A stretch of DNA of 64,000 bases from an uncultured Gammaproteobacteria bacterium (lineage in GTDB: Bacteria > Patescibacteriota > Microgenomatia > Levybacterales > GWA1-39-11): NCBI GenBank assembly GCA_964450885.1, contig CAYVFE010000001.1, positions 65,301 to 129,300 on the forward strand, in the 5' to 3' direction. The notes beneath the pieces were generated by a model that worked only from the letters and a program-made list of their open reading frames with translations, ran no database searches and was not told the origin of the DNA. Each line of letters begins with the position of its first letter. Within the stretch, counting starts at the first letter, position 1. The position numbers and the translations under genes are program-made. Shown here piece by piece: positions 8,487 to 48,388 of this stretch.

Positions 8487-8777
8487 ATGACAGAACTGTT
8501 CCGGTCTCCCGAAGAATTTCTTAAGGGTTCTATCCAGACTTTTTTTGACAATAATATCTACTCGGGTTTTTCGCGTCCATTTCAATTAGACAGACTTGAA
8601 AAAGATGAGACCGTTACGCAGGTGAGACCAGGCAGTAATGCCTACAATTCATTATTAGTCGGAAACTGGGAAGAAATGATTAGCAAATCTGATAATGCAT
8701 GGGCAAAGGGACTCTATAACCTAGGAATGCAATTTGAGATGGAATTGCGTCTTCCATATTGGTATTTCGAAAAGTAG
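8487..8777 (+). CDS. hypothetical protein
   Basis: 96-aa ORF with no recognisable domain. Confidence 0.3.
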   Translation: MTELFRSPEEFLKGSIQTFFDNNIYSGFSRPFQLDRLEKDETVTQVRPGSNAYNSLLVGNWEEMISKSDNAWAKGLYNLGMQFEMELRLPYWYFEK

Positions 8778-9824: not shown

Positions 9825-10760
9825 CTATAAATGACTATTTGGAGAATGTGGGGCCTGCAAAAAGGTCTGTCTCAGATCTACTCTATAAAATGGCCTCGTA
9901 TTTAGATTAAAATCTTCTTTCCATCCAAATGCTCCCGAGCCAGCATCATAAGTCTTCATGCCTTTTTTGATCGCATAATCAATTTTTAAAAGGGTAATAT
10001 ATTTACCTAAATTCTTTACCTTTGGATTGTACCCAGCATTGATTCCATAACAAATATCCTTGTAGGTCACCAAAAATCCAACTCCCTCTTTCTTTCCACC
10101 TATAGAGACAGTTATTATGTCCGAGTCAAATTTCTCCGCTACCTCGCGGTAAAAATCATGCCAGTGAGGTCTTTCAAAAAAACTTGAATGGTTTTTGAAC
10201 CTAACCTTATTCCACTTTTCCAGAATATCCAGATCTTCCATATTTCCATGAGAAATGACCACATCTGCCTGACTAAAAATCTTTCTTATCTGGTATTCAA
10301 TATTTCTCCTGCTTTCACCATGAAGATATTGATGTAAAAAATCCTCGTAGTTGATCAGTCCCTTAAGATCTATAAAATAATTGTAGTCGTGAATCTCAGA
10401 CTCGCTCAATTCTGCTGATCCATTCATATATTCAAGAAGTGCTGGCCTATTGATCGAATCCAAAAAATTCTCTCTATAACTCTCATAACCAGACTTTAGA
10501 AAAATAGCGTTGTCTTCCATATATTCGAATCCAGCGAAAAAATCGAGATAATTTTTCTCCTTGTCCAGCATCAAAGGCAAAAGCCCCACAGGCTCATCGT
10601 TTTCATAAGCTGTAATAAAAAATATTGGGTAGTTAAAGTACTTGTAGTATGCGTATCTAAAATCCCATTCATCATATAAAACTTTTCTAGGCGATAGGAG
10701 ATCCCAAACTTTTTTTGCTTCTTTTATATCGGTAACCGTTCTAAAAATTATCTTTTTCAT
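9825..10760 (-). CDS. GNAT-fold FemAB/CelD-like aminoacyl- or acyl-transferase (putative)
   Basis: 311 aa. Architecture resembles BioF2/FemAB-like acetyltransferase domains. Translationally coupled to the upstream ATP-grasp gene (2-nt gap). Confidence 0.35.
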   Translation of the reverse strand: MKKIIFRTVTDIKEAKKVWDLLSPRKVLYDEWDFRYAYYKYFNYPIFFITAYENDEPVGLLPLMLDKEKNYLDFFAGFEYMEDNAIFLKSGYESYRENFLDSINRPALLEYMNGSAELSESEIHDYNYFIDLKGLINYEDFLHQYLHGESRRNIEYQIRKIFSQADVVISHGNMEDLDILEKWNKVRFKNHSSFFERPHWHDFYREVAEKFDSDIITVSIGGKKEGVGFLVTYKDICYGINAGYNPKVKNLGKYITLLKIDYAIKKGMKTYDAGSGAFGWKEDFNLNTRPFYRVDLRQTFLQAPHSPNSHL

Positions 10761-10762
10761 TT

Positions 10763-12007
10763 CTAACTTATGACAAAACTTACTTTTGGATAGTTGGATT
10801 CCAAATTAGAGTGAGCAGACTGGGCAGACTCTCCTTTAGCAGTTATCCATCCTAGATAATCAAAATCCCTAGGTGGCATATATACTGCCTCATCCTTTTT
10901 TTTACTAATATGAACCTCCAAAACCCCATTGCTCTTTTTTGCCTCATCGTCTATGTCTATATCTACGATCTTTCCTTCTTTCTGTGGTAGAAAATATCTG
11001 CCTTCTAGATAGAGATTGGGAGTTTCGGGTTTGTGGACGCTGATTTTCTCTCCCAATGCAATCAGGACCGCATAATCCACCAAATCAACTCCCCAAGCGT
11101 GCTTTATAAAACTATAGACCTCGTCTCCCCCCATCCGAAGGTTGATCTCGATAGGGACAGGACCTTTTGATGAAGATTTTGCTTCAAAATGAATGCATCC
11201 ATTTCCTACATTTAATACTTTTAGTACTTTTGAAGCCATATAAATAAGAGCATCCTGTTTTTCTTTTGAGAGCGAAGAGGGCGCAGCTTGACCTGTTTCC
11301 ACGAAATAAGGCTCGTTCGTCTGAAAATTGTCCGTAATCGAAAAGAATTTTATTTCTCCATCTTGTAGCAGAATATCTATGTCGACTTCTTGTCCATCAA
11401 TATATTCCTCAACAAATACATTCGTATTTATCCACTCTGGAGCAAGCCAAAAAGACTCGATGTGCTTTTTGATTGTTTCATACTCCTCCCTTAATTCCTC
11501 TATGGAATCTACCTTAACGACAAATGCGCTCGCCGCACCATATACAGGCTTGATCACCAACGGAAATTTAAGGTTTTCCTGAATACTTATAAGATCAGCC
11601 TCAGAAGATAGCACAGCGTGATGTGGAACAGGGAGGTTATTTCTCTCGCATGCTTGCCTAAAAAAGTACTTATTCTTTATTTCCTCAGCTGTTTTTTTCG
11701 GGATTCCGACCCACCCGAACCTTTCTGTAATTTCCGCCGTAAGCGTCACAACTTCTTCCCAAAAAGTCAAAGCTCCGTCAATTCGATGTTCCTTGTGAGA
11801 CAAATAAGATTCTATCGCCCTTATACATGCGCTGTTATCGGACAAATCCGCAATTATCCAATCGTCTACGAGTCCGTCGGGACAATTCTTTTTACTATCG
11901 AGAATGATGACGTAGTAGCCCAGATCCTGAAGTCTTTTAAGCACCTGCTCCTTACTGGGGTAACCGCTTCGAACTAAAAGAACGTATTTATGATTGGATT
12001 CTTTCAT
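10763..12007 (-). CDS. ATP-grasp domain ligase
   Basis: 414 aa. Pre-ATP-grasp region followed by an ATP-grasp fold (PLVIKPVYGAASAFVVKV; EEYIDGQEVDID). Confidence 0.65.
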   Translation of the reverse strand: MKESNHKYVLLVRSGYPSKEQVLKRLQDLGYYVIILDSKKNCPDGLVDDWIIADLSDNSACIRAIESYLSHKEHRIDGALTFWEEVVTLTAEITERFGWVGIPKKTAEEIKNKYFFRQACERNNLPVPHHAVLSSEADLISIQENLKFPLVIKPVYGAASAFVVKVDSIEELREEYETIKKHIESFWLAPEWINTNVFVEEYIDGQEVDIDILLQDGEIKFFSITDNFQTNEPYFVETGQAAPSSLSKEKQDALIYMASKVLKVLNVGNGCIHFEAKSSSKGPVPIEINLRMGGDEVYSFIKHAWGVDLVDYAVLIALGEKISVHKPETPNLYLEGRYFLPQKEGKIVDIDIDDEAKKSNGVLEVHISKKKDEAVYMPPRDFDYLGWITAKGESAQSAHSNLESNYPKVSFVIS

Positions 12008-20080: not shown

Positions 20081-20183
20081 GATTTATTCTATAACAAAAA
20101 CCCACCCACACAACCTTCTTACAAAGAGCATAAAGCATATTTACTGAAAAAAACTAATATATCAGACAGGAGGTGATAATTTT

Positions 20184-39311: not shown

Positions 39312-40850
39312 TTATGGATTTGGCGGAGGAAACTCTATGTCGGAAACTGTTTCATCATCGACCATATCTACGCTCGTTTCATTTGTATTCTCCGGTTCGT
39401 TAAATCCAGGTATTTGTAGTATATCACCTGCGATAACTTGAAGAATAACGAATGAGAAAATGATAAAAAGTAGACCTATTATTGCAGCTGTGATAATCTC
39501 GCGGGCATGTTTTATCTTTTCGGGATCGCCGCGTGAAACCATGTAGTTATATCCACCGTATATTATAAGAAGCAGGGCAGCCACCCCTGCTATAGAGAGC
39601 ACATATGTGAAGATGCTAAGTACGAATTCGTCTAGGTCAAGCCCTATCGTACCCAGCGCGGTTTCAATCTTTGCGCAGTCGGCAGGATTTGTTACATCGT
39701 TTTCTCTTCCTGGTAATTGATGAAGAGGATCAGGGACGGCACCATCCTTTAGCTCGGCGCACGGGAGTCTGGTACCACCGCTAGAGAGCCCCAGTTCCAC
39801 GAAAAGCTGCGCCATGGAATTTAGATCTTTTCCCTCAGGATCTATTATGGGATCTCCACACACATTTGCTGTAGGGTCACTTCCTGGTATTCCGACATGA
39901 CAGTGAATTTCTGCGTAGACGAACCCCCCAAGACAGTCATCGTAGTTATGGGATTCATTTATCTGCTCACGAAGCCTAATTACATAATCTCCAGCTAGAG
40001 TAACCCCCTCTTCATCCGTCGGGAATACTTTTGTGACCTGTTCTCCTGGAGCCGAGAAGCTTATGCATGACTGGTTGTTTCCTGGATTTAGAATAGCTTG
40101 ATGTAAGACATCATTTCTCATCCCCGGTCCGTCTACGATGATCTGGTAGTTATTCCTATTCTTTTTATCGCCATTTCCGTTATTGCGGATTTTGGGAGAC
40201 GATACATTAACTGTGAATTTTCCACCAGGAGTAAGATTATTGCTGGGGCTTACCGTCATCTCGGGCACTCCATGATTTACAAAAAACCCCGCTACTGTAT
40301 GGAGTATGAATACATCGCCTGCCTTCTGATAAAGAGAGAGGAGATAGACACTGCCTGGATAAAAATAGTCTTTGTCGTTATTTTCACCGTTTTCGTCTCC
40401 TGCGCACTCCTTGCTTCCATTTCCATTAGTAAATCTTTCGGGGGTCTTTAATTTTGAGTCTCCGTCTCCACAGACTATGATGGTCTTGGATTCGTCGTCG
40501 AATTTATAGCGTTGAAGAGTTTTCTCGTCGACCTGGTCGTCTGTGAGTCCGCGTGTAGCTTGTCCTACGTACTCCAGGTTGCCTTCAAATATCCCATCTT
40601 TTACGTCATCATCGTCTATACATAAATCCTGTTCCATACATATATATAGATCGTTAACACTTAGGGAATCGATGAGGTCTCCTTGGAAGGTGACACTTAC
40701 TGTGCTCAGGTAGTCATTTATTTCCTCGAGAGGAGGCTTCACTGTAAAAGTTGATTCCTGAGCATGGGAATTATTCGGAAATAGGAGAAATAGAGAAAAA
40801 AGCGCGAAAAATAAAACAATAAGCCTTCTTGTCATATTCCTATCATACAC
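39312..40850 (-). CDS. large secreted Cys/Asp/Gly-rich ectodomain fused to C-terminal T4SS pilin-like domain (candidate tip adhesin or minor pilin)
   Basis: 512 aa with a signal peptide and a roughly 400-aa ectodomain. C-terminus ...SRGDPEKIKHAREIITAAIIGLLFIIFSFVILQ is the pilin motif. Confidence 0.55.
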   Translation of the reverse strand: MYDRNMTRRLIVLFFALFSLFLLFPNNSHAQESTFTVKPPLEEINDYLSTVSVTFQGDLIDSLSVNDLYICMEQDLCIDDDDVKDGIFEGNLEYVGQATRGLTDDQVDEKTLQRYKFDDESKTIIVCGDGDSKLKTPERFTNGNGSKECAGDENGENNDKDYFYPGSVYLLSLYQKAGDVFILHTVAGFFVNHGVPEMTVSPSNNLTPGGKFTVNVSSPKIRNNGNGDKKNRNNYQIIVDGPGMRNDVLHQAILNPGNNQSCISFSAPGEQVTKVFPTDEEGVTLAGDYVIRLREQINESHNYDDCLGGFVYAEIHCHVGIPGSDPTANVCGDPIIDPEGKDLNSMAQLFVELGLSSGGTRLPCAELKDGAVPDPLHQLPGRENDVTNPADCAKIETALGTIGLDLDEFVLSIFTYVLSIAGVAALLLIIYGGYNYMVSRGDPEKIKHAREIITAAIIGLLFIIFSFVILQVIAGDILQIPGFNEPENTNETSVDMVDDETVSDIEFPPPNP

Positions 40851-40874
40851 TTAATGAAAATTTCATTGCAAATT

Positions 40875-42200
40875 CTACGAACTAAGCTTATAGCCAGTGC
40901 CTTTTATGGTTTTGATGAATGTAGGATTTGCAGGATCAGTTTCAATCTTTTTTCTGAGCCTGTGCATTATCTGATCAAAAGCCTGATCACTGACGCCTTC
41001 CTGGGTCTTCTGGTCCGTCCACACGGCATTTATGAGCTCGTTTTTACTGAGTACCTTGTCTTTATTCTCAAGCATAAATTTTAAGAGCTTAAATTCTGAC
41101 GATGAAAGTAATTGGGTGATCGGATTGTTTGCCTTAAGGATTTCATTTCTCTGGGCATCGTACTTAATCGATTCGTCGACATCGATTTTTTTGCTTTCGA
41201 TAAAGTCTACAAGTAGGGGAATCGACAGTTTTTTTCCTACCACAAGACCTGTTTTTGTGAGATATTTTTCTGAAAGGTTCTCAAAATCTTTATTTTTCAA
41301 TGCCAGCTTTTCGCTGGGAAGCAGGCTTTGCCAGACTTCACCTAGGGCACTTATTATAGTAGGCTTATCGAGGAGATATTTTTTAATGTCAGTTATTTTC
41401 TCGTCTTCCGTGACAAATTTTTCGTAAGCAAGCTTTGTCAGCTTTGAATGCCCCCCTGTTAGGTCCAGAATTTTTTCTGCGGTATCCTTTCCTAGAGACT
41501 TTCTGGACATCTTTTCTATGTATTTTGTCCTAAAGGAGATTGCGATAGGATCATAAATTGCGATATAGATTTCATTTCCTGTAACTATATCTGAAAAATC
41601 AGTAAGTATGTTTATGTCCACGGTTTCATCGAGCGGCCTTTTAAGTGAAAATATGGCTCCAAATCTATACTTTGCCAGATTCCTAAAAGTCTTAAGGTTG
41701 GCAAAGAAGTCTTCGGTCAGGTTAGGTGCGATCGTGTCAAACCTATCAAAGAGCAGGATCAGTGAGAGTTTTTTTTCGATAGTCAGAAATTCAATCGCTT
41801 TTTTTAAGAACTGCATCATCAGAAATTCGTCATTCATCGAGATTGCTTCTTGAAGAAGGGATCTTACCTTCGTGGACTCCTCCAAAAGTTGCCTTTCGCT
41901 CAAAGAAAATGCGATGGAAGAAAAGATGAGTTTTATTATGTCTATGTGATCTCTTCCCTTTGCCTCTGCTGAGTCTATATAGACAAAATGCATCAATTTC
42001 TCGTACGTTTTCAAGTGATATTTTCTGGCGTCTGTGTTGTATGCGAGGAGTCTGAGGAGGTTGTTTTTCCCCGTTCCCGGAAGTCCTATGATTTGCGCAG
42101 AAAGCCCTTTTTTAAGAAAGGTCAGATATTGGTGAATCTCTTTTTCGCGGGAATTTTCAGGATATAACGATTCAAAGTATTTTAGTGGTGTAAGTGTCAT
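40875..42200 (-). CDS. P-loop ATPase fused to C-terminal OmpR/PhoB-type winged-helix DNA-binding domain
   Basis: Walker A-like GLPGTGKNN near the N-terminus. C-terminal trans_reg_C pattern (ELINAVW...DQIMHRLRKKIE...IKTIKGTGYKL). Confidence 0.6.
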   Translation of the reverse strand: MTLTPLKYFESLYPENSREKEIHQYLTFLKKGLSAQIIGLPGTGKNNLLRLLAYNTDARKYHLKTYEKLMHFVYIDSAEAKGRDHIDIIKLIFSSIAFSLSERQLLEESTKVRSLLQEAISMNDEFLMMQFLKKAIEFLTIEKKLSLILLFDRFDTIAPNLTEDFFANLKTFRNLAKYRFGAIFSLKRPLDETVDINILTDFSDIVTGNEIYIAIYDPIAISFRTKYIEKMSRKSLGKDTAEKILDLTGGHSKLTKLAYEKFVTEDEKITDIKKYLLDKPTIISALGEVWQSLLPSEKLALKNKDFENLSEKYLTKTGLVVGKKLSIPLLVDFIESKKIDVDESIKYDAQRNEILKANNPITQLLSSSEFKLLKFMLENKDKVLSKNELINAVWTDQKTQEGVSDQAFDQIMHRLRKKIETDPANPTFIKTIKGTGYKLSS

Positions 42201-42346
42201 GTAAATATAGTATCACGCAAAATCCATTTGTAAGGCAAGTGTTAGATAGACGTCAAGATGATTATAGCTTCATAGTTTATATTGATCACATTATGGAGCG
42301 ATTGACACGTACGCACACGCTGGCATATCCTTTAGAAAGGAGCATT

Positions 42347-45300
42347 ATGGAAACAGGAAATGAAAGAGGGGGAGTACCCCAATCTAGCGACAAGAATAAC
42401 AAGTCAACAAATCTTGAGGCTTCAAAATCCCGGATGGAGCGGATGGTGGATCGTTTTAAAAAAGATAACGAAAAAACTCCGAGTGGGAACGGCAGCCTAA
42501 GAGATAAAGATGAGAATAAGTCTGCAGAAAGACCTTCGTCTGCTACTGTTGGGACAAGTAAGAGTGGTTTTAATCCCGAAAGGTTTAAAGAAAATCCATA
42601 TTTGCATGTGTTGGCGATGAGGGTAAGGGCCGCGGAGCAGGAGGGGAGAATCGACAACAAATTTCTCGATGAGCTTCGGCAGCAGACATACGAAGGAGTG
42701 GGAGAAGGAAGAATTTCGGATAACTGGGCATTTCAGTTCATCAGGGATATAGATAGAAATTATGTTGTGAATGCCAGCATCCAAAAAGAACACGATGACT
42801 CCAAAGAGCTCTCAAAAGATATAGAGGCGATAGTTGAGCAGAGAAAACAAAGAAGGCTTACTGCAGAGGAAATCGAGGCAAGTCGCGTCGCGCTGGAGAG
42901 CGCGTTCGGAAGAAAGCTTACGACATCCGAGCTTGATCGCGTAACAAGAGGTTCAAAAATCACTGAGAGCGGGAGGAATGCAGAAGCCTTTGGGGCTCAA
43001 ATCCAGACGATCGAAAAGCTTGTGGATAACCCTGATAGATTTGCGGCCTTCGAGTCTTCTCTGTCATCCCAAAGTCCGGATCAATTAAAAAGATTGCTAG
43101 GCGGAGATGGCGGGAGGCTGGTGCTGGGAGCATTACTTGGTGATATAGCTGAGAGGAGTAAGTATTTCCAAAGACTTGAGGAGATATTGAGCAAAGATCA
43201 GGCAGGGATGAAGGACGGATTGATTGCCTTATCAAGAGATATAAAAAGAGATGAGCAGGCAGCAAAACCTAAGGTCGACCCAGAAAAAGCAAGGCTTGCA
43301 AGAGAGCAGGCAGAGAAGTGGATTGAGGAGCAGAGGAAAAAACGTCAGGTTACGGCTGAGGAAGTAGATGCGATTCTCGCGAATGCGGAGAGGGGTGTAG
43401 GGCTTATTATGGGAGGCTCCGACTATAACGAGAACGCGGCAAATATAATGGAGCAGGTTGATATGATTTCAGATGAGACTGGGGAGGCTTTCACCAGAGC
43501 GAGGGACCTTTTAGTCGACGACGATTTGGTGAATGTTTTGGCAGAAGAAATATATGGAGTCGATCTTCCAAATATCAGGGCTGAAAAAAGTAAATTTCTT
43601 GATCTTAAAAATATCGATGACCCAGCAGTATTCAAGTCTCGTTACAAAAGTCTTCTTTCAGATCTACTAGCCAGGGCAAACACGGCAGCATCCGACCCAA
43701 GACGTTTGGAGGAAAGAGTGCAGGCTCAAAAAGACGCTGAGGAATTCACTGCAACGGGCGAGAAGACAAAGGGAGGGAAGACCTTTAATTTGCGAGGCCT
43801 TGAAGAAATAGTCAATAGCATATCACCGCCGCGTCCGGGAGAGCGTCCATTCTTTGAGCGCGAGCCCCGAAATATTAAAGAGGTTGCAGCATGGATTATG
43901 GCAGGGGATGATAGAAGCATTTGGGGGCCGGACGGGAGATATCCGATATTTAGCTGGGGTGAGGGGATAAATCCAGAAACAGAAGCAAGAAACGTTGATT
44001 TTCATGCCCAGAACTTAATACTCTGGCTACGCAATAAGTCTTTGGAGCATCATGCCGATAATCCTAACGACCCGCTAAATCTACTACAAGGAGTTGCGAT
44101 AGAGACTCTCTATAAATCGATAAGCATACTCACGATGAAGTATAACAAGCAAAAGTATTTTGCCGACGAAGAGGGCCGCCCGTTATCAAACCTTGCGGAC
44201 GAAGTCATAAATGAGGCTTGGCTTTTTGGAACCAGAAGAAACAAAAACCTTGGTTATATCCAGGCGATGAATAGCGACGAGAAGTTGTTTGAGGCGATAG
44301 TTGAGCTTAGTGGTAAAAATGATCATACAAACGGTAAGACTTTGTCTGGTCACCTTCAGATGGGTGAGAACTTTAGCGATACGGAAGGCAATGAGGACAA
44401 TAAGGTGGGGGATGCGATGCTGGCTGCAAATCTTATATATAGAAACCTTTCTGATATAGAAAAGCTAAGAGAGGTTTTGCCCGAAGGGTCGCAGATGTTA
44501 ACGCTTGAAGGTTTTAAAAAAGCTTCAAGATATTTGAATGAAGAAGGTTTTTCAGAAGACACTAATGGTTATGGAAACCTAAAGATAGAAGGAAATAGGG
44601 TTTATTTTCTGAATCCACAAACTAAGGTTAGGACGGAGATATTTAATAACGACGGAAAGCTTGTAAGTGATGCAAATCTTATAAAGTTTTTGAACTTCTT
44701 TCCGGAGGCAACTCCTCAAGAGACGAATGAGGCATTTGTGAGAGAGCTTGTCAAGCAAAGTATCGCAGGCATGGTTGGGTTTGATTCTGGAATGGAAAGC
44801 GAAAAATACGAGGAATTTATCGCGGAGCGCAAGGAGGCGCTCGGTAACGCTTATAAAGATATAAGCATTGCGGATTATAGGAAGATTCAGAGGATGAATC
44901 TTGAGTGGGCGGAGACGAATTCGTGGGTGGAGCAGCGATGGAATGGAGCTGCAGCCAGAAACGATACAGGATATAGGGGTTATGATGCGTGGACGAAGAT
45001 GTATGCGCAGTATTACCGCGAGCGTCAGTCTGGGGAGGGAACCGCTGGTCCTATCGGTAATCCCCATGATCTGCAGATATTTCGTCTCCTAACGCCCGAT
45101 ATGTGGCTTGCGATACGTACAGAATCCGGAGAGTCCGTCCAGGAAGTCTTTGAAGAGCTTCACATGCACAATCTTAAGCTATATCAACTTGGTCCGGAGC
45201 AAAAAAATGAAAGGGAAGCTATAGAAAATAAAAAGAAAAAAGTATACGAGAAGTTAAAATTTCCTCGGTGGACGGAGTCTGACTGGGCTGCAAACGGAGT

Positions 45301-46099
45301 CAAGCGTCAGGCAGAGGTTTGGCACAATATAATGAACACTGAGGATCTAAAGTTCAACGAGCTTGTGAAAAGAGACAACTGGGGAATACTAAGATATGAC
45401 AGACAGAAATTTGAAGAAGTCGTAAAGGACGACTTTATAAAAAAACGACGCTACGCTTTTTCATCTAATAACGCCATAAATTATGGAGCGGTGACGCGCA
45501 TGAGGGTAAGAAGCAGCTCAGATAAGGCTATAGACGGTTTTGAATTTAAGGATATGTATGTTGGAGAAGCTATGTTCGGAGAGGTAGTGATGGGATCTAT
45601 CAGACGGGATTGGTTCGATGGTAATCTGCAGTACGATGCAGCAGATGAGAATGGGATGGCTGTTAAAAAGAGTGCCCCTAAAAAGGGTGAGAAGTTCGAT
45701 CCAAAAAAACATGGAACTTTTCAGGAATATCTCAACTCGCGCTCCGGTAGGGGAAAGATACTCAAGAATGTATGTAGGGCGGGAATCGCTGCGCAGATTA
45801 ATGCGCATAGACAGCATACGGGCACCACTGAGAGATGGGATGCTGAAACGATTAGAAATCTTTTAGAGTCATTACATACAATGCCACAGTATGAGGAGGA
45901 CCCTGTTACAGGAGTAGAGGTAAAAAACGAACACGCTCAGTTCTTTTCCAAGGAAGACATAAAGTGGATAAGACAGCAGACAAGAACAACCAAGGGGTGG
46001 CTTATATTTGAGGATGCGAGGCATATTGGTTGGGATGCAGCAGCAGAGGGAATTCCAGAGATGTTCAAGATATTCTTCAAGGATGTTCTCTCTTCCTAA
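42347..46099 (+). CDS. very large (about 1250 aa) charged hypothetical protein, candidate secreted substrate
   Basis: Only long plus-strand gene in the locus. No TM or signal peptide. RBS GAAAGGAG before the ATG at 42347. The track ORF starts at 42194 and overlaps the neighbour's start. Confidence 0.5.
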   Translation: METGNERGGVPQSSDKNNKSTNLEASKSRMERMVDRFKKDNEKTPSGNGSLRDKDENKSAERPSSATVGTSKSGFNPERFKENPYLHVLAMRVRAAEQEGRIDNKFLDELRQQTYEGVGEGRISDNWAFQFIRDIDRNYVVNASIQKEHDDSKELSKDIEAIVEQRKQRRLTAEEIEASRVALESAFGRKLTTSELDRVTRGSKITESGRNAEAFGAQIQTIEKLVDNPDRFAAFESSLSSQSPDQLKRLLGGDGGRLVLGALLGDIAERSKYFQRLEEILSKDQAGMKDGLIALSRDIKRDEQAAKPKVDPEKARLAREQAEKWIEEQRKKRQVTAEEVDAILANAERGVGLIMGGSDYNENAANIMEQVDMISDETGEAFTRARDLLVDDDLVNVLAEEIYGVDLPNIRAEKSKFLDLKNIDDPAVFKSRYKSLLSDLLARANTAASDPRRLEERVQAQKDAEEFTATGEKTKGGKTFNLRGLEEIVNSISPPRPGERPFFEREPRNIKEVAAWIMAGDDRSIWGPDGRYPIFSWGEGINPETEARNVDFHAQNLILWLRNKSLEHHADNPNDPLNLLQGVAIETLYKSISILTMKYNKQKYFADEEGRPLSNLADEVINEAWLFGTRRNKNLGYIQAMNSDEKLFEAIVELSGKNDHTNGKTLSGHLQMGENFSDTEGNEDNKVGDAMLAANLIYRNLSDIEKLREVLPEGSQMLTLEGFKKASRYLNEEGFSEDTNGYGNLKIEGNRVYFLNPQTKVRTEIFNNDGKLVSDANLIKFLNFFPEATPQETNEAFVRELVKQSIAGMVGFDSGMESEKYEEFIAERKEALGNAYKDISIADYRKIQRMNLEWAETNSWVEQRWNGAAARNDTGYRGYDAWTKMYAQYYRERQSGEGTAGPIGNPHDLQIFRLLTPDMWLAIRTESGESVQEVFEELHMHNLKLYQLGPEQKNEREAIENKKKKVYEKLKFPRWTESDWAANGVKRQAEVWHNIMNTEDLKFNELVKRDNWGILRYDRQKFEEVVKDDFIKKRRYAFSSNNAINYGAVTRMRVRSSSDKAIDGFEFKDMYVGEAMFGEVVMGSIRRDWFDGNLQYDAADENGMAVKKSAPKKGEKFDPKKHGTFQEYLNSRSGRGKILKNVCRAGIAAQINAHRQHTGTTERWDAETIRNLLESLHTMPQYEEDPVTGVEVKNEHAQFFSKEDIKWIRQQTRTTKGWLIFEDARHIGWDAAAEGIPEMFKIFFKDVLSS

Positions 46100-46114: not shown

Positions 46115-48388
46115 TTACGAACTACTAGTCCGTTCCCTTAAGTTATTTATTGCTTCTAGTCTTATATTAGTTCTTTCTTCATCTGACATGTTCGTTAGTC
46201 CTCGATCATTCTTAATTATTTCTACTTCGTTTGTAATTTCCTCCTCAGTAAAAGCAGATGGAGCAGGTCCGCCTGTTGTTGGGGGCGTTGCAGGCCCACC
46301 TGTGGATGGGTTTCCAGATGCTATTCCAGAGCCTAGCGCAGACCCTTTCCTATTTTTAATAAGTTGTGGGAGTGGTGTACTTAACACTCGTTGAAATCTT
46401 GATAGACGACTTCCCCCTCCAGTTGGAGAGCCACCTGATGGGGGTGGAGTACCGCCGGATGGAGGAGTGGAAGACCCTCCTTCGTCATCTCCCGGTTCTT
46501 CTGGTTTCGGATTATTTCTTTCTGCCTCAGCCAGTAATATAGCTTTTCTCTCTTCGGATTTTTCACGCCTTTTCTTTCTTGCTTCGGGAGTGCTAAATTT
46601 ATCTCGCAGCTTGTTAAGAGTTGGGATTTTTTCCATTCTTTCAGTAAACTTTTCCCCACTCCATGCCTTTAGTCTTCCAGACTCACCAGTATGAGGATTG
46701 GTGTACCATAATGATTTTCTTATTCCTCCGAATGCTCCTCCGACTACTCCGCTTCCTACGCCCAAAGACTTGCCCATGCCACCAATAAGTCCTCCTGTAT
46801 CGGGAGCCTTTAATGCGCTTTTCACGATATTAAGTGCCTCAGGCATTATGAGTACTACTCCAAGCCCTATGATTGAGGCGAACCCCGAGGCTGGGTTGTC
46901 TCCAAGCTCACCCACGAATGGCGGGATAAGTATTTCTTGAGGAGAAGAAAAGGCCTGTTCCTGAATAGATTTACCTATTAGAAAAAGGAGTAGTACTGTC
47001 GGGAATGCTGCGAGATTTGCGATTATCATTCTTAGCCAGGAGCCAATCCCCCCTCCAACTCCAGGAAGAATGCCGGCAAGTATCCAAAATGGAGCAAATA
47101 TCGTCCCTACGAGGACCATGATAAATGCCTTAATAAGCATTATCCATGTCCGAAATAGTGCGGAAAGCACCGCGATAAGTATAACAAGGTATGCTATCAG
47201 AAATGCGACTAGTTTTATGAAGCTTCCAGCAGTAGCAACACCTATTGCTCCGCCAGCTGCACCTCCGACAAGGCTTCCGATAGTTGATCCTGCAAGTGCT
47301 CCAGATCCTACACCAGCACTTACTGCCATAATAGCAGGAATTAACGCTAGACTAGCTCCTCCTGTGGGGAGGGCTAAGAAAGCAGCTACGCCTCCCAAGA
47401 CAAGTCCGCCAATGCCTCCTAGTAGCTTTCCTATCCCGGCGCCGGCTGACCCGCCGATAATTCCTCCTAATGCCTTAGTAAGGAAGTTCCCGAGTCCACC
47501 ACCAAGATTACCGTCAAATATTCCGCCTAGCGCATTTCCAGCGCCCGTCGCTACAGGTTCTGTTATCGCGTTTATTCCACCTAAACCTCCAACCGCATTT
47601 ATGGGGTTAGTATCTATGCTAGGGATAGTTGCAAGTGCTCTTGAGTCAAAGATATTTATGATCAGATACATAAGCACATACATAGTGTCGACCAAAAAAC
47701 CGACTATCGCATACGAAAGAGTGATGAGAACGAGCGCTACAATTATCCGAGGCAGTTGGTTCTGGATTGTCATGACGCTCCTTGCGTCCAGATTTAGTCT
47801 GAACATGATCCCCAGTCCCAGGACGATAAACACTATTAGAAATAGAAAATACGTAATATCTCTAAATACTTCCCAAAGTTTCAGTATGGGCTTCAATCCC
47901 GCAAACCCGACACCCTGAGCATATGCATTCTGAGAGATGCCAAAATTTTCAGCAAGGTAGCCTCCATAGTGAGTTGAAGAAAGTGGGATATTGTAGGTTG
48001 CTCCAATCATATCTCCCGCGACCGCAATAAGCCCTCCATCAGGCTCAGCGTAACCGAGCTTTTTTGTGACGGGATTTACCCCAAGGCATCTACCGTCTAT
48101 GCTGAGTGGGTTAAATCCTGCCATAAAACACGATCCTGCTCCAAGGATTTCTATAAAGACACTCTGGGTATAGGTCGATAAGTTTTGCGGCACATCAGGC
48201 TCTGTGTTAAGAGGCAGCTGTTGCGGATTTTGAATTTGAGCACCCTGAGCTTCTTGTAGATTTTGGTTTTGAATAATTTCATTTGCGGAGGATGAGGATT
48301 CTGCCTGAGCAAATACAGACGACGAAGAAAAATATAGGAAGAACAGGGCACCTAATATAATAAATAAAAATTGCGATAATTTTTTCAT
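46115..48388 (-). CDS. VirB6/TrbL-like polytopic membrane protein
   Basis: 757 aa. Signal peptide, multiple TM helices, Gly-rich stretches, C-terminal Pro/Gly-rich tail. Confidence 0.5.
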   Translation of the reverse strand: MKKLSQFLFIILGALFFLYFSSSSVFAQAESSSSANEIIQNQNLQEAQGAQIQNPQQLPLNTEPDVPQNLSTYTQSVFIEILGAGSCFMAGFNPLSIDGRCLGVNPVTKKLGYAEPDGGLIAVAGDMIGATYNIPLSSTHYGGYLAENFGISQNAYAQGVGFAGLKPILKLWEVFRDITYFLFLIVFIVLGLGIMFRLNLDARSVMTIQNQLPRIIVALVLITLSYAIVGFLVDTMYVLMYLIINIFDSRALATIPSIDTNPINAVGGLGGINAITEPVATGAGNALGGIFDGNLGGGLGNFLTKALGGIIGGSAGAGIGKLLGGIGGLVLGGVAAFLALPTGGASLALIPAIMAVSAGVGSGALAGSTIGSLVGGAAGGAIGVATAGSFIKLVAFLIAYLVILIAVLSALFRTWIMLIKAFIMVLVGTIFAPFWILAGILPGVGGGIGSWLRMIIANLAAFPTVLLLFLIGKSIQEQAFSSPQEILIPPFVGELGDNPASGFASIIGLGVVLIMPEALNIVKSALKAPDTGGLIGGMGKSLGVGSGVVGGAFGGIRKSLWYTNPHTGESGRLKAWSGEKFTERMEKIPTLNKLRDKFSTPEARKKRREKSEERKAILLAEAERNNPKPEEPGDDEGGSSTPPSGGTPPPSGGSPTGGGSRLSRFQRVLSTPLPQLIKNRKGSALGSGIASGNPSTGGPATPPTTGGPAPSAFTEEEITNEVEIIKNDRGLTNMSDEERTNIRLEAINNLRERTSSS

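Follow-up and report, generated by a model that had tools for sequence, protein, structure and literature searches.

In the window (the whole stretch of 64,000 nucleotides analysed here) a gene for a putative transcription factor separates a T4SS-like pilin operon from a large divergent gene. This raises the question of which of the two it controls, and whether nucleotides have a part in that control. To our knowledge, gene regulation in Patescibacteria is almost unexplored. In the one relative that can be manipulated genetically, epibiotic growth requires the T4SS-like system of these bacteria, pilin array included (PMC10633639, PMC12102498). The original prediction described the regulator as a P-loop ATPase with a C-terminal OmpR/PhoB winged helix that leads the pilin operon and might serve as an NTP-dependent switch for the whole locus.

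On the pilin side of the regulator the window encodes a 512-aa protein with a C-terminal T4SS_pilin domain, three small T4SS pilins, PrgI, a TraC-like protein and VirB4. On the other side are a 1301-aa ORF, a 757-aa polytopic membrane protein, DUF5667, NrdR and RNR. These neighbours are unchanged around homologs at 44–53% identity. The regulator gene and the parts of its product are as follows.

40875..42200, minus strand: regulator coding sequence, 441 aa, taken from the ORF list, with stop codon TAG at 40875–40877 and an N-terminus that can be aligned with 43 homologs
41556..42200, minus strand: P-loop nucleotide-binding domain, residues 1–215
42063..42086, minus strand: Walker A, GLPGTGKN, residues 39–46; family consensus G-L-P-G-x-G-[K29/R15]-[S35/N7/G2] in a 44-member alignment
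41736..41759, minus strand: Walker B, ILLFDRFD, residues 148–155; D152 invariant, position 155 D or E in 42/44
41409..41549, minus strand: helical lid domain, residues 218–264, with invariant FR224 and TGGH251xKL in the alignment
41181..41387, minus strand: winged-helix-like domain of the NOD module, residues 272–340, with conserved W290, P295 and E297
40878..41168, minus strand: OmpR/PhoB-type winged-helix DNA-binding domain, residues 345–441
40941..40997, minus strand: recognition helix GVSDQAFDQIMHRLRKKIE, residues 402–420 (G402–E420), family mean column identity 0.92

We found that residues 365–439 of the regulator match Pfam Trans_reg_C (PF00486) with 72.8 bits (cut-off 26.2; E 2.4e-20). 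The C-terminal fold consists of an N-terminal beta-sheet, three helices and a C-terminal hairpin wing, and it superposes on solved OmpR/PhoB members. All sequence matches of the regulator to solved structures were DNA-binding domains of response regulators, ToxR or CadC. Similarly, the NCBIfam models for RpaB, PhoB, VirG and MtrA aligned via their C-terminal parts only (PhoB model, E 8e-14). The DNA-binding domain is thus Trans_reg_C and not an HTH of the LuxR/GerE type. A Pfam search for a receiver domain gave no Response_reg match and the N-terminus has a P-loop NTPase fold, in agreement with the predicted absence of a receiver. There was also no match to a BTAD domain, and the C-terminal position of the DNA-binding domain confirms that the domain order is inverted relative to SARP/AfsR proteins.

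The N-terminal 340 residues matched no Pfam model above threshold. In a confident AF2 model this P-loop module grouped with STAND/Orc-Cdc6-type NTPases, and the helical and winged-helix domains directly follow the P-loop domain in the order NBD-HD-WHD. Neither Pfam nor the model revealed sensor repeats (TPR, WD40, LRR), and the chain ends with the winged helix-turn-helix at residue 441. The archaeal Walker-type ATPases PABY2304 (2qen), SSO1545 (2fna) and Orc1/Cdc6 have only 13–15% identity to the regulator; their C-terminal winged helix belongs to another type than OmpR/PhoB, and they have roles in replication initiation or an unknown function. These results show that the regulator is a STAND-class transcription factor in which a NOD module is joined directly to a C-terminal OmpR/PhoB winged helix. 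The predicted combination of P-loop ATPase and winged helix is therefore borne out, both by the Trans_reg_C match and by the STAND-type model.

A database search returned at least 435 homologs of uniform length (~440 aa), all with PF00486, and every homolog with a source name was labelled Levybacteria or Patescibacteria. When one genome per GTDB species was scanned, at least 181 species-level Levybacteria genomes carried a relative of the regulator. By tblastn, pilins lie within 8 kb of it in 72/83 loci, the remainder being short contigs. The same fusion is thus found beside T4SS-like loci in other CPR genomes, where it had been suggested to look for it. The regulator goes unmentioned in a published survey of T4SS loci in Patescibacteria.

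We also compared a profile of the N-terminal module with 1.84 billion cluster representatives and obtained 1200 proteins at E≤1e-3. Among these were a core clade of ~60 and a large shell of equal length at E 1e-22 to 1e-38. In a sample of the shell (n=78), Trans_reg_C was present in 73/78 and Pfam nSTAND1 in 38/78, with a best E of 1.2e-11. The window protein itself had no nSTAND1 (PF20703) match, and 3/44 close relatives had one at E≤1. This suggests that the NOD module is distantly related to the nSTAND1 clade, with clade membership reached by transitivity only. Kaur et al. (2021) gave nSTAND1 its name, for a clade of STAND proteins from conflict systems (PMC8195603). A fusion with an OmpR-type domain is mentioned neither there nor in the companion paper of 2020, and we did not find the architecture described in the literature on nSTAND1/TCAD9 with winged helix-turn-helix domains or on STAND-OmpR fusions.

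The definition of nSTAND1 in conflict systems brings up a role in defence. In such a role the regulator would be a counter-invader STAND sensor of this clade and its large neighbour an effector switched on by infection, and indeed the neighbour has no known fold and distant relatives of the regulator adjoin TCAD9-kinase proteins. We consider this highly improbable. PADLOC models gave no match at E≤0.01 for the regulator, the large gene product, p757, p697 or the large pilin, and the regulator has no sensor or effector-associated domain. Moreover, the neighbourhood is a fixed part of the core genome in at least 181 species, with NrdR/RNR on one side and the T4SS on the other, and not a variable island.

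The original prediction drew attention to an atypical Walker A with Asn in place of Thr or Ser. We found that this substitution is real and is confined to the subclade of the window; in 44 members the last Walker A position is S in 35, N in 7 and G in 2, and the family consensus is GKS. Departures from GKS are GRS in 14 members, GKN in 6, GKG in 2, GRN in 1, and a degenerate AAPAxGRS loop in 2/44. The Walker A Lys is replaced by Arg in 15/44 (34%), and it is unusual for a member to have more than one deviation. In the Walker B-like strand the pattern is hhhF-D152-[R/K]-F-[D/E]155, and G44 and D152 are invariant in the 44-member alignment. We had considered R153 as the sign of a lost catalytic acid and a dead ATPase, and dropped this since D/E155 is conserved and the D-x-F-D pattern (hhhFD-x-F-D) resembles the extended Walker B of NACHT-type proteins. 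In the distant shell the Walker A Lys is changed to Ile or Leu in 19/77 and the Walker B Asp is lost in 18/77, and E, R and Q follow this Asp at similar frequencies.

Conservation in the regulator is highest in the DNA-binding domain, and the P-loop variants coexist with a near-invariant recognition helix. The change of Lys to Arg in 34%, the Asn of the window and the AAPAxGRS loop of two members weaken the case for nucleotide control. From the alignment, this variability speaks for hydrolysis being dispensable, with binding perhaps dispensable too in some lineages. The NTP dependence of the regulator is therefore uncertain, and an NTP-dependent switch is not a safe generalisation for the family when Arg replaces the Walker A Lys in 15 of the 44 members. 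It is possible, if doubtful, that the NOD module is a nucleotide-independent oligomerisation scaffold (iSTAND-like), in which case the regulator, with the same targets as proposed below, would be a constitutive autoregulated activator or repressor and not a switch. The P-loop variants beside an invariant DNA-binding helix, the losses of Walker A Lys and Walker B Asp in the shell and the absence of a sensor domain all point this way. On the other hand, G44 and D152 are invariant, D/E155 is nearly so and members mostly deviate at one position or none, which suggests that the nucleotide pocket is still under selection.

We compared the arrangement of genes among loci. In the commonest arrangement, which includes the window (type A), the large gene is on the minus strand when the regulator and the pilins are on the plus strand. 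In ~15 loci (type B) the arrangement is flipped, with pilins on the minus strand and regulator and large gene on the plus strand. The most divergent core members have the flipped arrangement, and in them too the regulator lies between the VirB2-like pilin operon and the large gene. Thus the place of the regulator between both units is kept and its orientation varies. On the pilin side the window has the following features.

39312..40835, minus strand: large pilin gene, C-terminal T4SS_pilin domain by Pfam; probable start at ATG 40835 by promoter geometry
40842..40871, minus strand: predicted pilin-operon promoter from a sigma-70 scan, −35 TTGCAA (40866–40871), 18-nt spacer, −10 TATGAT (40842–40847)

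The regulator is immediately upstream of the pilin operon and co-oriented with it in most loci. It could accordingly be an NTP-dependent master switch of the pilin/T4SS-like operon downstream, and the Gly and Lys of Walker A and the Asp of Walker B are largely conserved. In addition, we found no terminator between the regulator and the pilin gene in the window, so that some co-transcription or read-through is possible. However, the near-consensus −35 and −10 of the pilin promoter fit within the 39-nt gap between the two genes, with 6 nt from TATGAT to the pilin ATG at 40835, and an equivalent layout recurs in ~30/66 loci under a strict pattern. A scan of 2.2 Mb with the weight matrix described below found neither the repeat array nor a matrix match upstream of pilins. 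Furthermore, the regulator is divergent from the pilins in ~15 loci, Arg replaces the Walker A Lys in 34% of members and two members lack the glycine-rich loop. We therefore think it unlikely that the pilin operon is under such a switch. The idea that the regulator simply leads this operon is not supported, given a canonical promoter, TTGCAA-18-TATGAT, between both genes and without the array.

On the other side of the regulator, the intergenic region and the start of the large gene contain the following elements.

42204..42212, minus strand: −10 region of the regulator promoter, candidates TACTAT or TATATT, 3–6 nt before the ATG at 42200
42228..42234, plus strand: repeat R1, TTGTAAG; its reverse complement is at the −35 position of the regulator's own promoter
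42239..42245, plus strand: repeat R2, GTGTTAG, 11 bp after R1
42250..42257, plus strand: promoter-proximal element E3, ACGTCAAG (family consensus ATATCAAG), in phase (+22) and at the −35 position of promoter P1
42278..42283, plus strand: −10 box of P1, TATATT, at the family's fixed offset from the repeats; no −35
42293..42295, plus strand: ATG1 of the large gene, 9 nt past the P1 −10, a leaderless geometry
42302..42331, plus strand: promoter P2, TTGACA (42302–42307)-18-TATCCT (42326–42331), canonical, inside the ATG1 ORF; the sigma-70 scan agrees independently
42338..42349, plus strand: Shine-Dalgarno AGGAG (42338–42342) and ATG2 (42347–42349) of the large gene; the second Met recurs in homologs
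42293..46099, plus strand: large gene, the predicted target, encoding a soluble protein of 1268 aa (1250 aa from ATG2)

The intergenic region of the window taken alone contains repeated 9-mers at chance level only. Its site is weak, with a matrix score of 12.1 bits, and the window as a whole has 10 matches at ≥10 bits vs 6.4 expected. As the window site is not significant by itself, the case rests on comparison among loci. The regions upstream of type-A regulators have in common the block CTTGATAT-N3-C-CTnACAA-N4-CTnACAA(T). When 29 loci were aligned on CTTGA, the non-anchor columns proved to be two 7-bp direct repeats (CTnACAA-N4-CTnACAA), exactly 11 bp apart. In these 29 loci the middle and outer repeats are equally informative, and the information lies in the TGTnA cores and not in the spacers. 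From the alignment we built a position weight matrix (PWM) of 20 columns (20 nt) and scanned 2.2 Mb with a cut of 14 bits. This gave 78 matches at or above the cut, 31 of them directly upstream of a regulator gene.

Matches in other arrangements indicate which gene the repeats belong to. Thirteen loci not used for training have a small ORF inserted between regulator and large gene, and there the match is 450–550 bp upstream of the regulator. At one locus with such a small ORF (L207), the sole match in 14.5 kb adjoins the large gene and not the regulator. In nine type-B loci the match is just past the stop codon of the regulator, on the opposite strand. Our first view of the repeat block as the promoter or operator of the regulator itself was revised for these reasons: it lies 450–550 bp off beyond an intervening ORF in some loci and downstream of the regulator in type B. 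Relative to the large gene the array reads (A/T)TTGTAAG-N4-TTGTnAG-G-N3-ATATCAAG, followed by ~20 nt, TAnnnT, 6–9 nt and the ATG. It is upstream of the large gene and in constant relative orientation in all four gene arrangements. The suggestion of a switch for the whole locus needs revision here: wherever the regulator lies, also when it is flipped or separated by another ORF, the array stays with the promoter of the large divergent gene.

An extra repeat, which the PWM does not include, lies exactly at −11 in 13/58 loci vs 0–1 at any other upstream offset. Taken together the array consists of 3–4 direct repeats with a TGTnA core, spaced 7+4 bp with an 11-bp period. The presence of direct repeats within 42201–42346, which had been predicted, is thus supported by cross-locus comparison as an array phased at 11 bp. 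The pho-box half-site CTGTCAT, with its 7+4 spacing, fits the consensus YTGTnAK. Variants of the predicted operator follow phylogeny, and their covariation with the recognition helix was uninformative. A second PWM match in the window, at 20106–20125, was rejected as an ordinary −35/−10 promoter without the third element and its spacing.

We found that in 56/62 non-redundant loci the −10 of P1 keeps a constant distance of 31 ± 1 nt from the repeats, or of one helical turn more, and that an ATG follows 6–9 nt after it; in 53 of those 56 this ATG opens the long ORF. The best −35 match of P1 averages 2.1 of 6 vs 2.7 of 6 in random DNA from the same loci. P1 thus appears to be a −35-less, leaderless promoter behind 3–4 helically phased direct repeats. 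Past ATG1, TTGAC(A/T) occurs in frame as Leu-Thr in 54/56 loci, and in 50/56 it is followed 17 or 18 bp later by TAnnnT and then by a Shine-Dalgarno-like stretch and a second Met. The P2 −10 is kept at either spacing whatever the frame, with the peptide changing, which indicates selection on the DNA. The predicted target would thus be expressed in two forms, a leaderless long form from the repeat-dependent P1 and a Shine-Dalgarno-led short form from the canonical P2. In the window, the predicted transcription starts are ~42290–42293 (leaderless), ~42337–42339, 40835 and 42200. Across the family the product of the large gene is 1000–1350 aa long, with no known fold assigned.

Read on the other strand, the array of type-A loci falls on the core promoter of the regulator. 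In many of them E3 reads as a −35 TTGATA and R1 as a −10 TACAAT of the regulator gene, 18 bp apart, and in the group of the window R1 is at the −35 of the regulator promoter. Since the array overlaps this core promoter, its occupancy should interfere with the regulator's own transcription. The outer elements of type-A loci thus double as promoter hexamers of the regulator, and part of their conservation is plain promoter sequence. Such overlap counts in favour of another view, in which the array is no operator of the regulator and is either inherent in the promoters (divergent promoters that overlap, curvature from phased T-tracts) or a binding site for a different factor, with the true targets of the regulator elsewhere. 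The A/T-rich spacers would suit this explanation. In type B, however, where it cannot be a regulator promoter, the array has the same orientation and spacing relative to the large gene. Conservation extends to the middle repeat and to the extra one at −11, which belong to neither promoter hexamer, and the information is concentrated in the TGTnA cores and not in the spacers. We judge a non-operator origin of the array improbable.

We also carried out the reciprocal search, using the operator pattern alone against metagenome contigs, which gave at least 80 loci. Among the 80 matches listed, 51 lacked the P1 geometry and were chance-like, with a regulator match in only 3/51. The other 29 listed matches had the P1 geometry, and 21 of these carried a regulator at the predicted position and strand. 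Of the remaining eight, four had too short a flank and four had an adequate flank and no adjacent regulator (L107, L121, L133, L154). In L107 and L154 a complete array with P1 precedes an unrelated 183-aa ORF with no regulator nearby; these sites, which count in favour of a non-operator array, could instead be additional members of the regulon. The operator pattern alone is not specific in metagenomes. Regulator, array and large gene are always syntenic, so their co-occurrence does not tell which protein binds the array. We infer the link between regulator and predicted operator from their adjacency and from the fit to the OmpR/PhoB mode of binding, in which direct repeats are contacted in tandem every 10–11 bp or so.

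On balance we favor, with modest confidence, a model in which an oligomer of the STAND-OmpR/PhoB regulator binds the array, activates the large gene through P1 and represses its own gene, the pilin operon not being the primary target. In this model the DNA-binding domains of the oligomer would sit head-to-tail on the 3–4 TGTnA direct repeats. The array ends at the −35 position of P1, and bound regulator may there recruit RNA polymerase as PhoB, MalT and AfsR do. Because the array of the window covers the core promoter of the regulator on the other strand, the regulator would, once bound, repress its own gene as well. If AfsR and MalT are a guide, the NOD module would gate the DNA-binding domains or bring them together, probably through nucleotide binding and not hydrolysis. 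The pilin operon would be served by its own, constitutive-looking promoter.

MalT of E. coli is the prototype STAND transcription activator of the LAL family. It has an N-terminal NOD and a C-terminal DNA-binding domain, the same order as in the regulator, and acts at multi-box, −35-less promoters. It differs in that its DNA-binding domain is a LuxR-type HTH and not an OmpR/PhoB winged helix. MalT also has a large SUPR/TPR-like sensor domain that binds maltotriose, whereas the regulator is sensor-less and half the size. AfsR and the large SARPs of Streptomyces, like the regulator, combine an OmpR-type winged helix and a STAND NOD in one polypeptide. The OmpR-type domain of AfsR binds direct repeats overlapping the −35, and its NOD and TPR domains inhibit activation until ATP binds (PMC10936776). 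By this analogy AfsR appears to be the nearest studied precedent. Its order is DBD-BTAD-NOD-TPR, in contrast to the reversed order of the regulator, which lacks BTAD and TPR, and its NOD belongs to the NB-ARC/AP-ATPase clade whereas that of the regulator is nSTAND1-like. The DNA-binding domain of PhoB/OmpR response regulators is homologous to that of the regulator, and the predicted operator has pho-box geometry, with 7-bp direct repeats plus 4 bp in place of the −35. Unlike these proteins, the regulator has no receiver and no phospho-acceptor Asp, and control, if any, would be through the P-loop NOD. We rate the regulator as a new variation on the MalT/AfsR type of STAND transcription factor.

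More tentatively still, the regulator may be a sensor-less STAND bidirectional switch in an ultrasmall CPR bacterium, whose nucleotide-dependent oligomers on the array would turn the leaderless long 1300-aa isoform on and the regulator's own promoter off. If so, the T4SS neighbourhood of Patescibacteria would have its first known dedicated regulator, and an nSTAND1-OmpR fusion family of ~1200 clusters its founding characterised member. The 1300-aa target, a companion of the T4SS-like machinery for host interaction, would have a novel fold. A transcription factor that is conserved throughout a lineage at a fixed place in the T4SS neighbourhood, with a predicted operator, predicted transcription starts and a predicted target, provides hypotheses that can be tested without cultivation.

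The STAND-OmpR fusion is not peculiar to CPR and is common to ~1200 cluster representatives. Non-CPR proteins with nSTAND1 and Trans_reg_C have the full-length architecture and size of the regulator at 19–28% identity, and we found them neither studied experimentally nor described in the literature. Their context is different, a PocR-HK / RR / GAF-HK / RR-kinase-TCAD9 operon that lacks both a T4SS and an operator of this kind. STAND-type control of an OmpR/PhoB domain thus exists in a minimal form, with the NOD first, the DNA-binding domain last and no sensor, and this form is widespread in other bacteria, where it is annotated only as 'winged helix protein'.

We found that the large gene, which diverges from the regulator, carries two promoters in tandem (P1 and P2) and two start codons in the same frame (window 42278-42349, + strand):

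P1 of the large gene, + strand: leaderless start from sequence, ATG1 at 42293
P2 of the large gene, + strand: canonical promoter, TTGACA-18-TATCCT, followed by a Shine-Dalgarno sequence and ATG2 at 42347

P2 sits inside the reading frame that encodes the long form, where its TTGAC(A/T) always reads as Leu-Thr. The -10 box of P2 is retained at a spacing of 17 or 18 bp whatever the frame, which indicates that the constraint acts on the DNA. From this arrangement the large gene is predicted to give two isoforms whose N-termini differ by approximately 18-35 residues. We rejected a GTG at 42194 as an ORF start (42194-42292, + strand); it is an artefact of a frame that is merely open through the promoter region, and the overlap of that ORF with the start codon of the regulator is not real.

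A -10 box lies only 3-9 nt 5' of the ATG, with no Shine-Dalgarno sequence, in three cases:

40833-40871, - strand: large pilin
42198-42212, - strand: regulator
42278-42295, + strand: large gene from P1

Since this layout recurs in three genes, the sequence suggests that leaderless mRNAs are common in the locus. Unlike the P1 start, the second start of the large gene has an AGGAG.

The full repeat array with P1 geometry was also observed 5' of an unrelated 183-aa ORF on two metagenome contigs (L107, ~8601-8700; L154, ~10759-10860). There the layout is TTGTGAG-N4-TTGTAAG ... GATATCAAG ... TATAAT ... ATG, and no regulator was found near the array on either contig. The 183-aa ORF may be a further member of the regulon. 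Outside the CPR, distant nSTAND1-wHTH relatives (L084, 963-8572; L208, 1089-9365) are the last gene of a conserved operon that also encodes a PocR histidine kinase, a response regulator, a GAF histidine kinase and a response-regulator/APH-kinase/TCAD9 protein. The same fusion appears to be wired into a phospho-signalling cascade in these relatives.

Two other proteins encoded in the window have membrane segments:

46115-48388, - strand: 757 aa, Gly-rich polytopic membrane protein, N-terminal hydrophobic segment
35772-37865, - strand: 697 aa, one C-terminal membrane anchor

The 757-aa neighbour is a candidate VirB6-like component, a component reported to be difficult to detect in Microgenomatia. 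A small ORF (~117-142 aa) matching PF05635 (23S_rRNA_IVP, four-helix bundle) is absent from the window and recurs at this locus in many Levybacteria, either among the pilins or between the large gene and the regulator:

L002, 9509-9937: PF05635 ORF
L207, 6577-6930: PF05635 ORF
L206, 2031-2420: PF05635 ORF

For many species-representative genomes with this Levybacteria-type locus (TPA binchicken assemblies; L005 and L007-L015 among many others), the title reads 'uncultured Gammaproteobacteria bacterium'; these records are evidently mislabelled.
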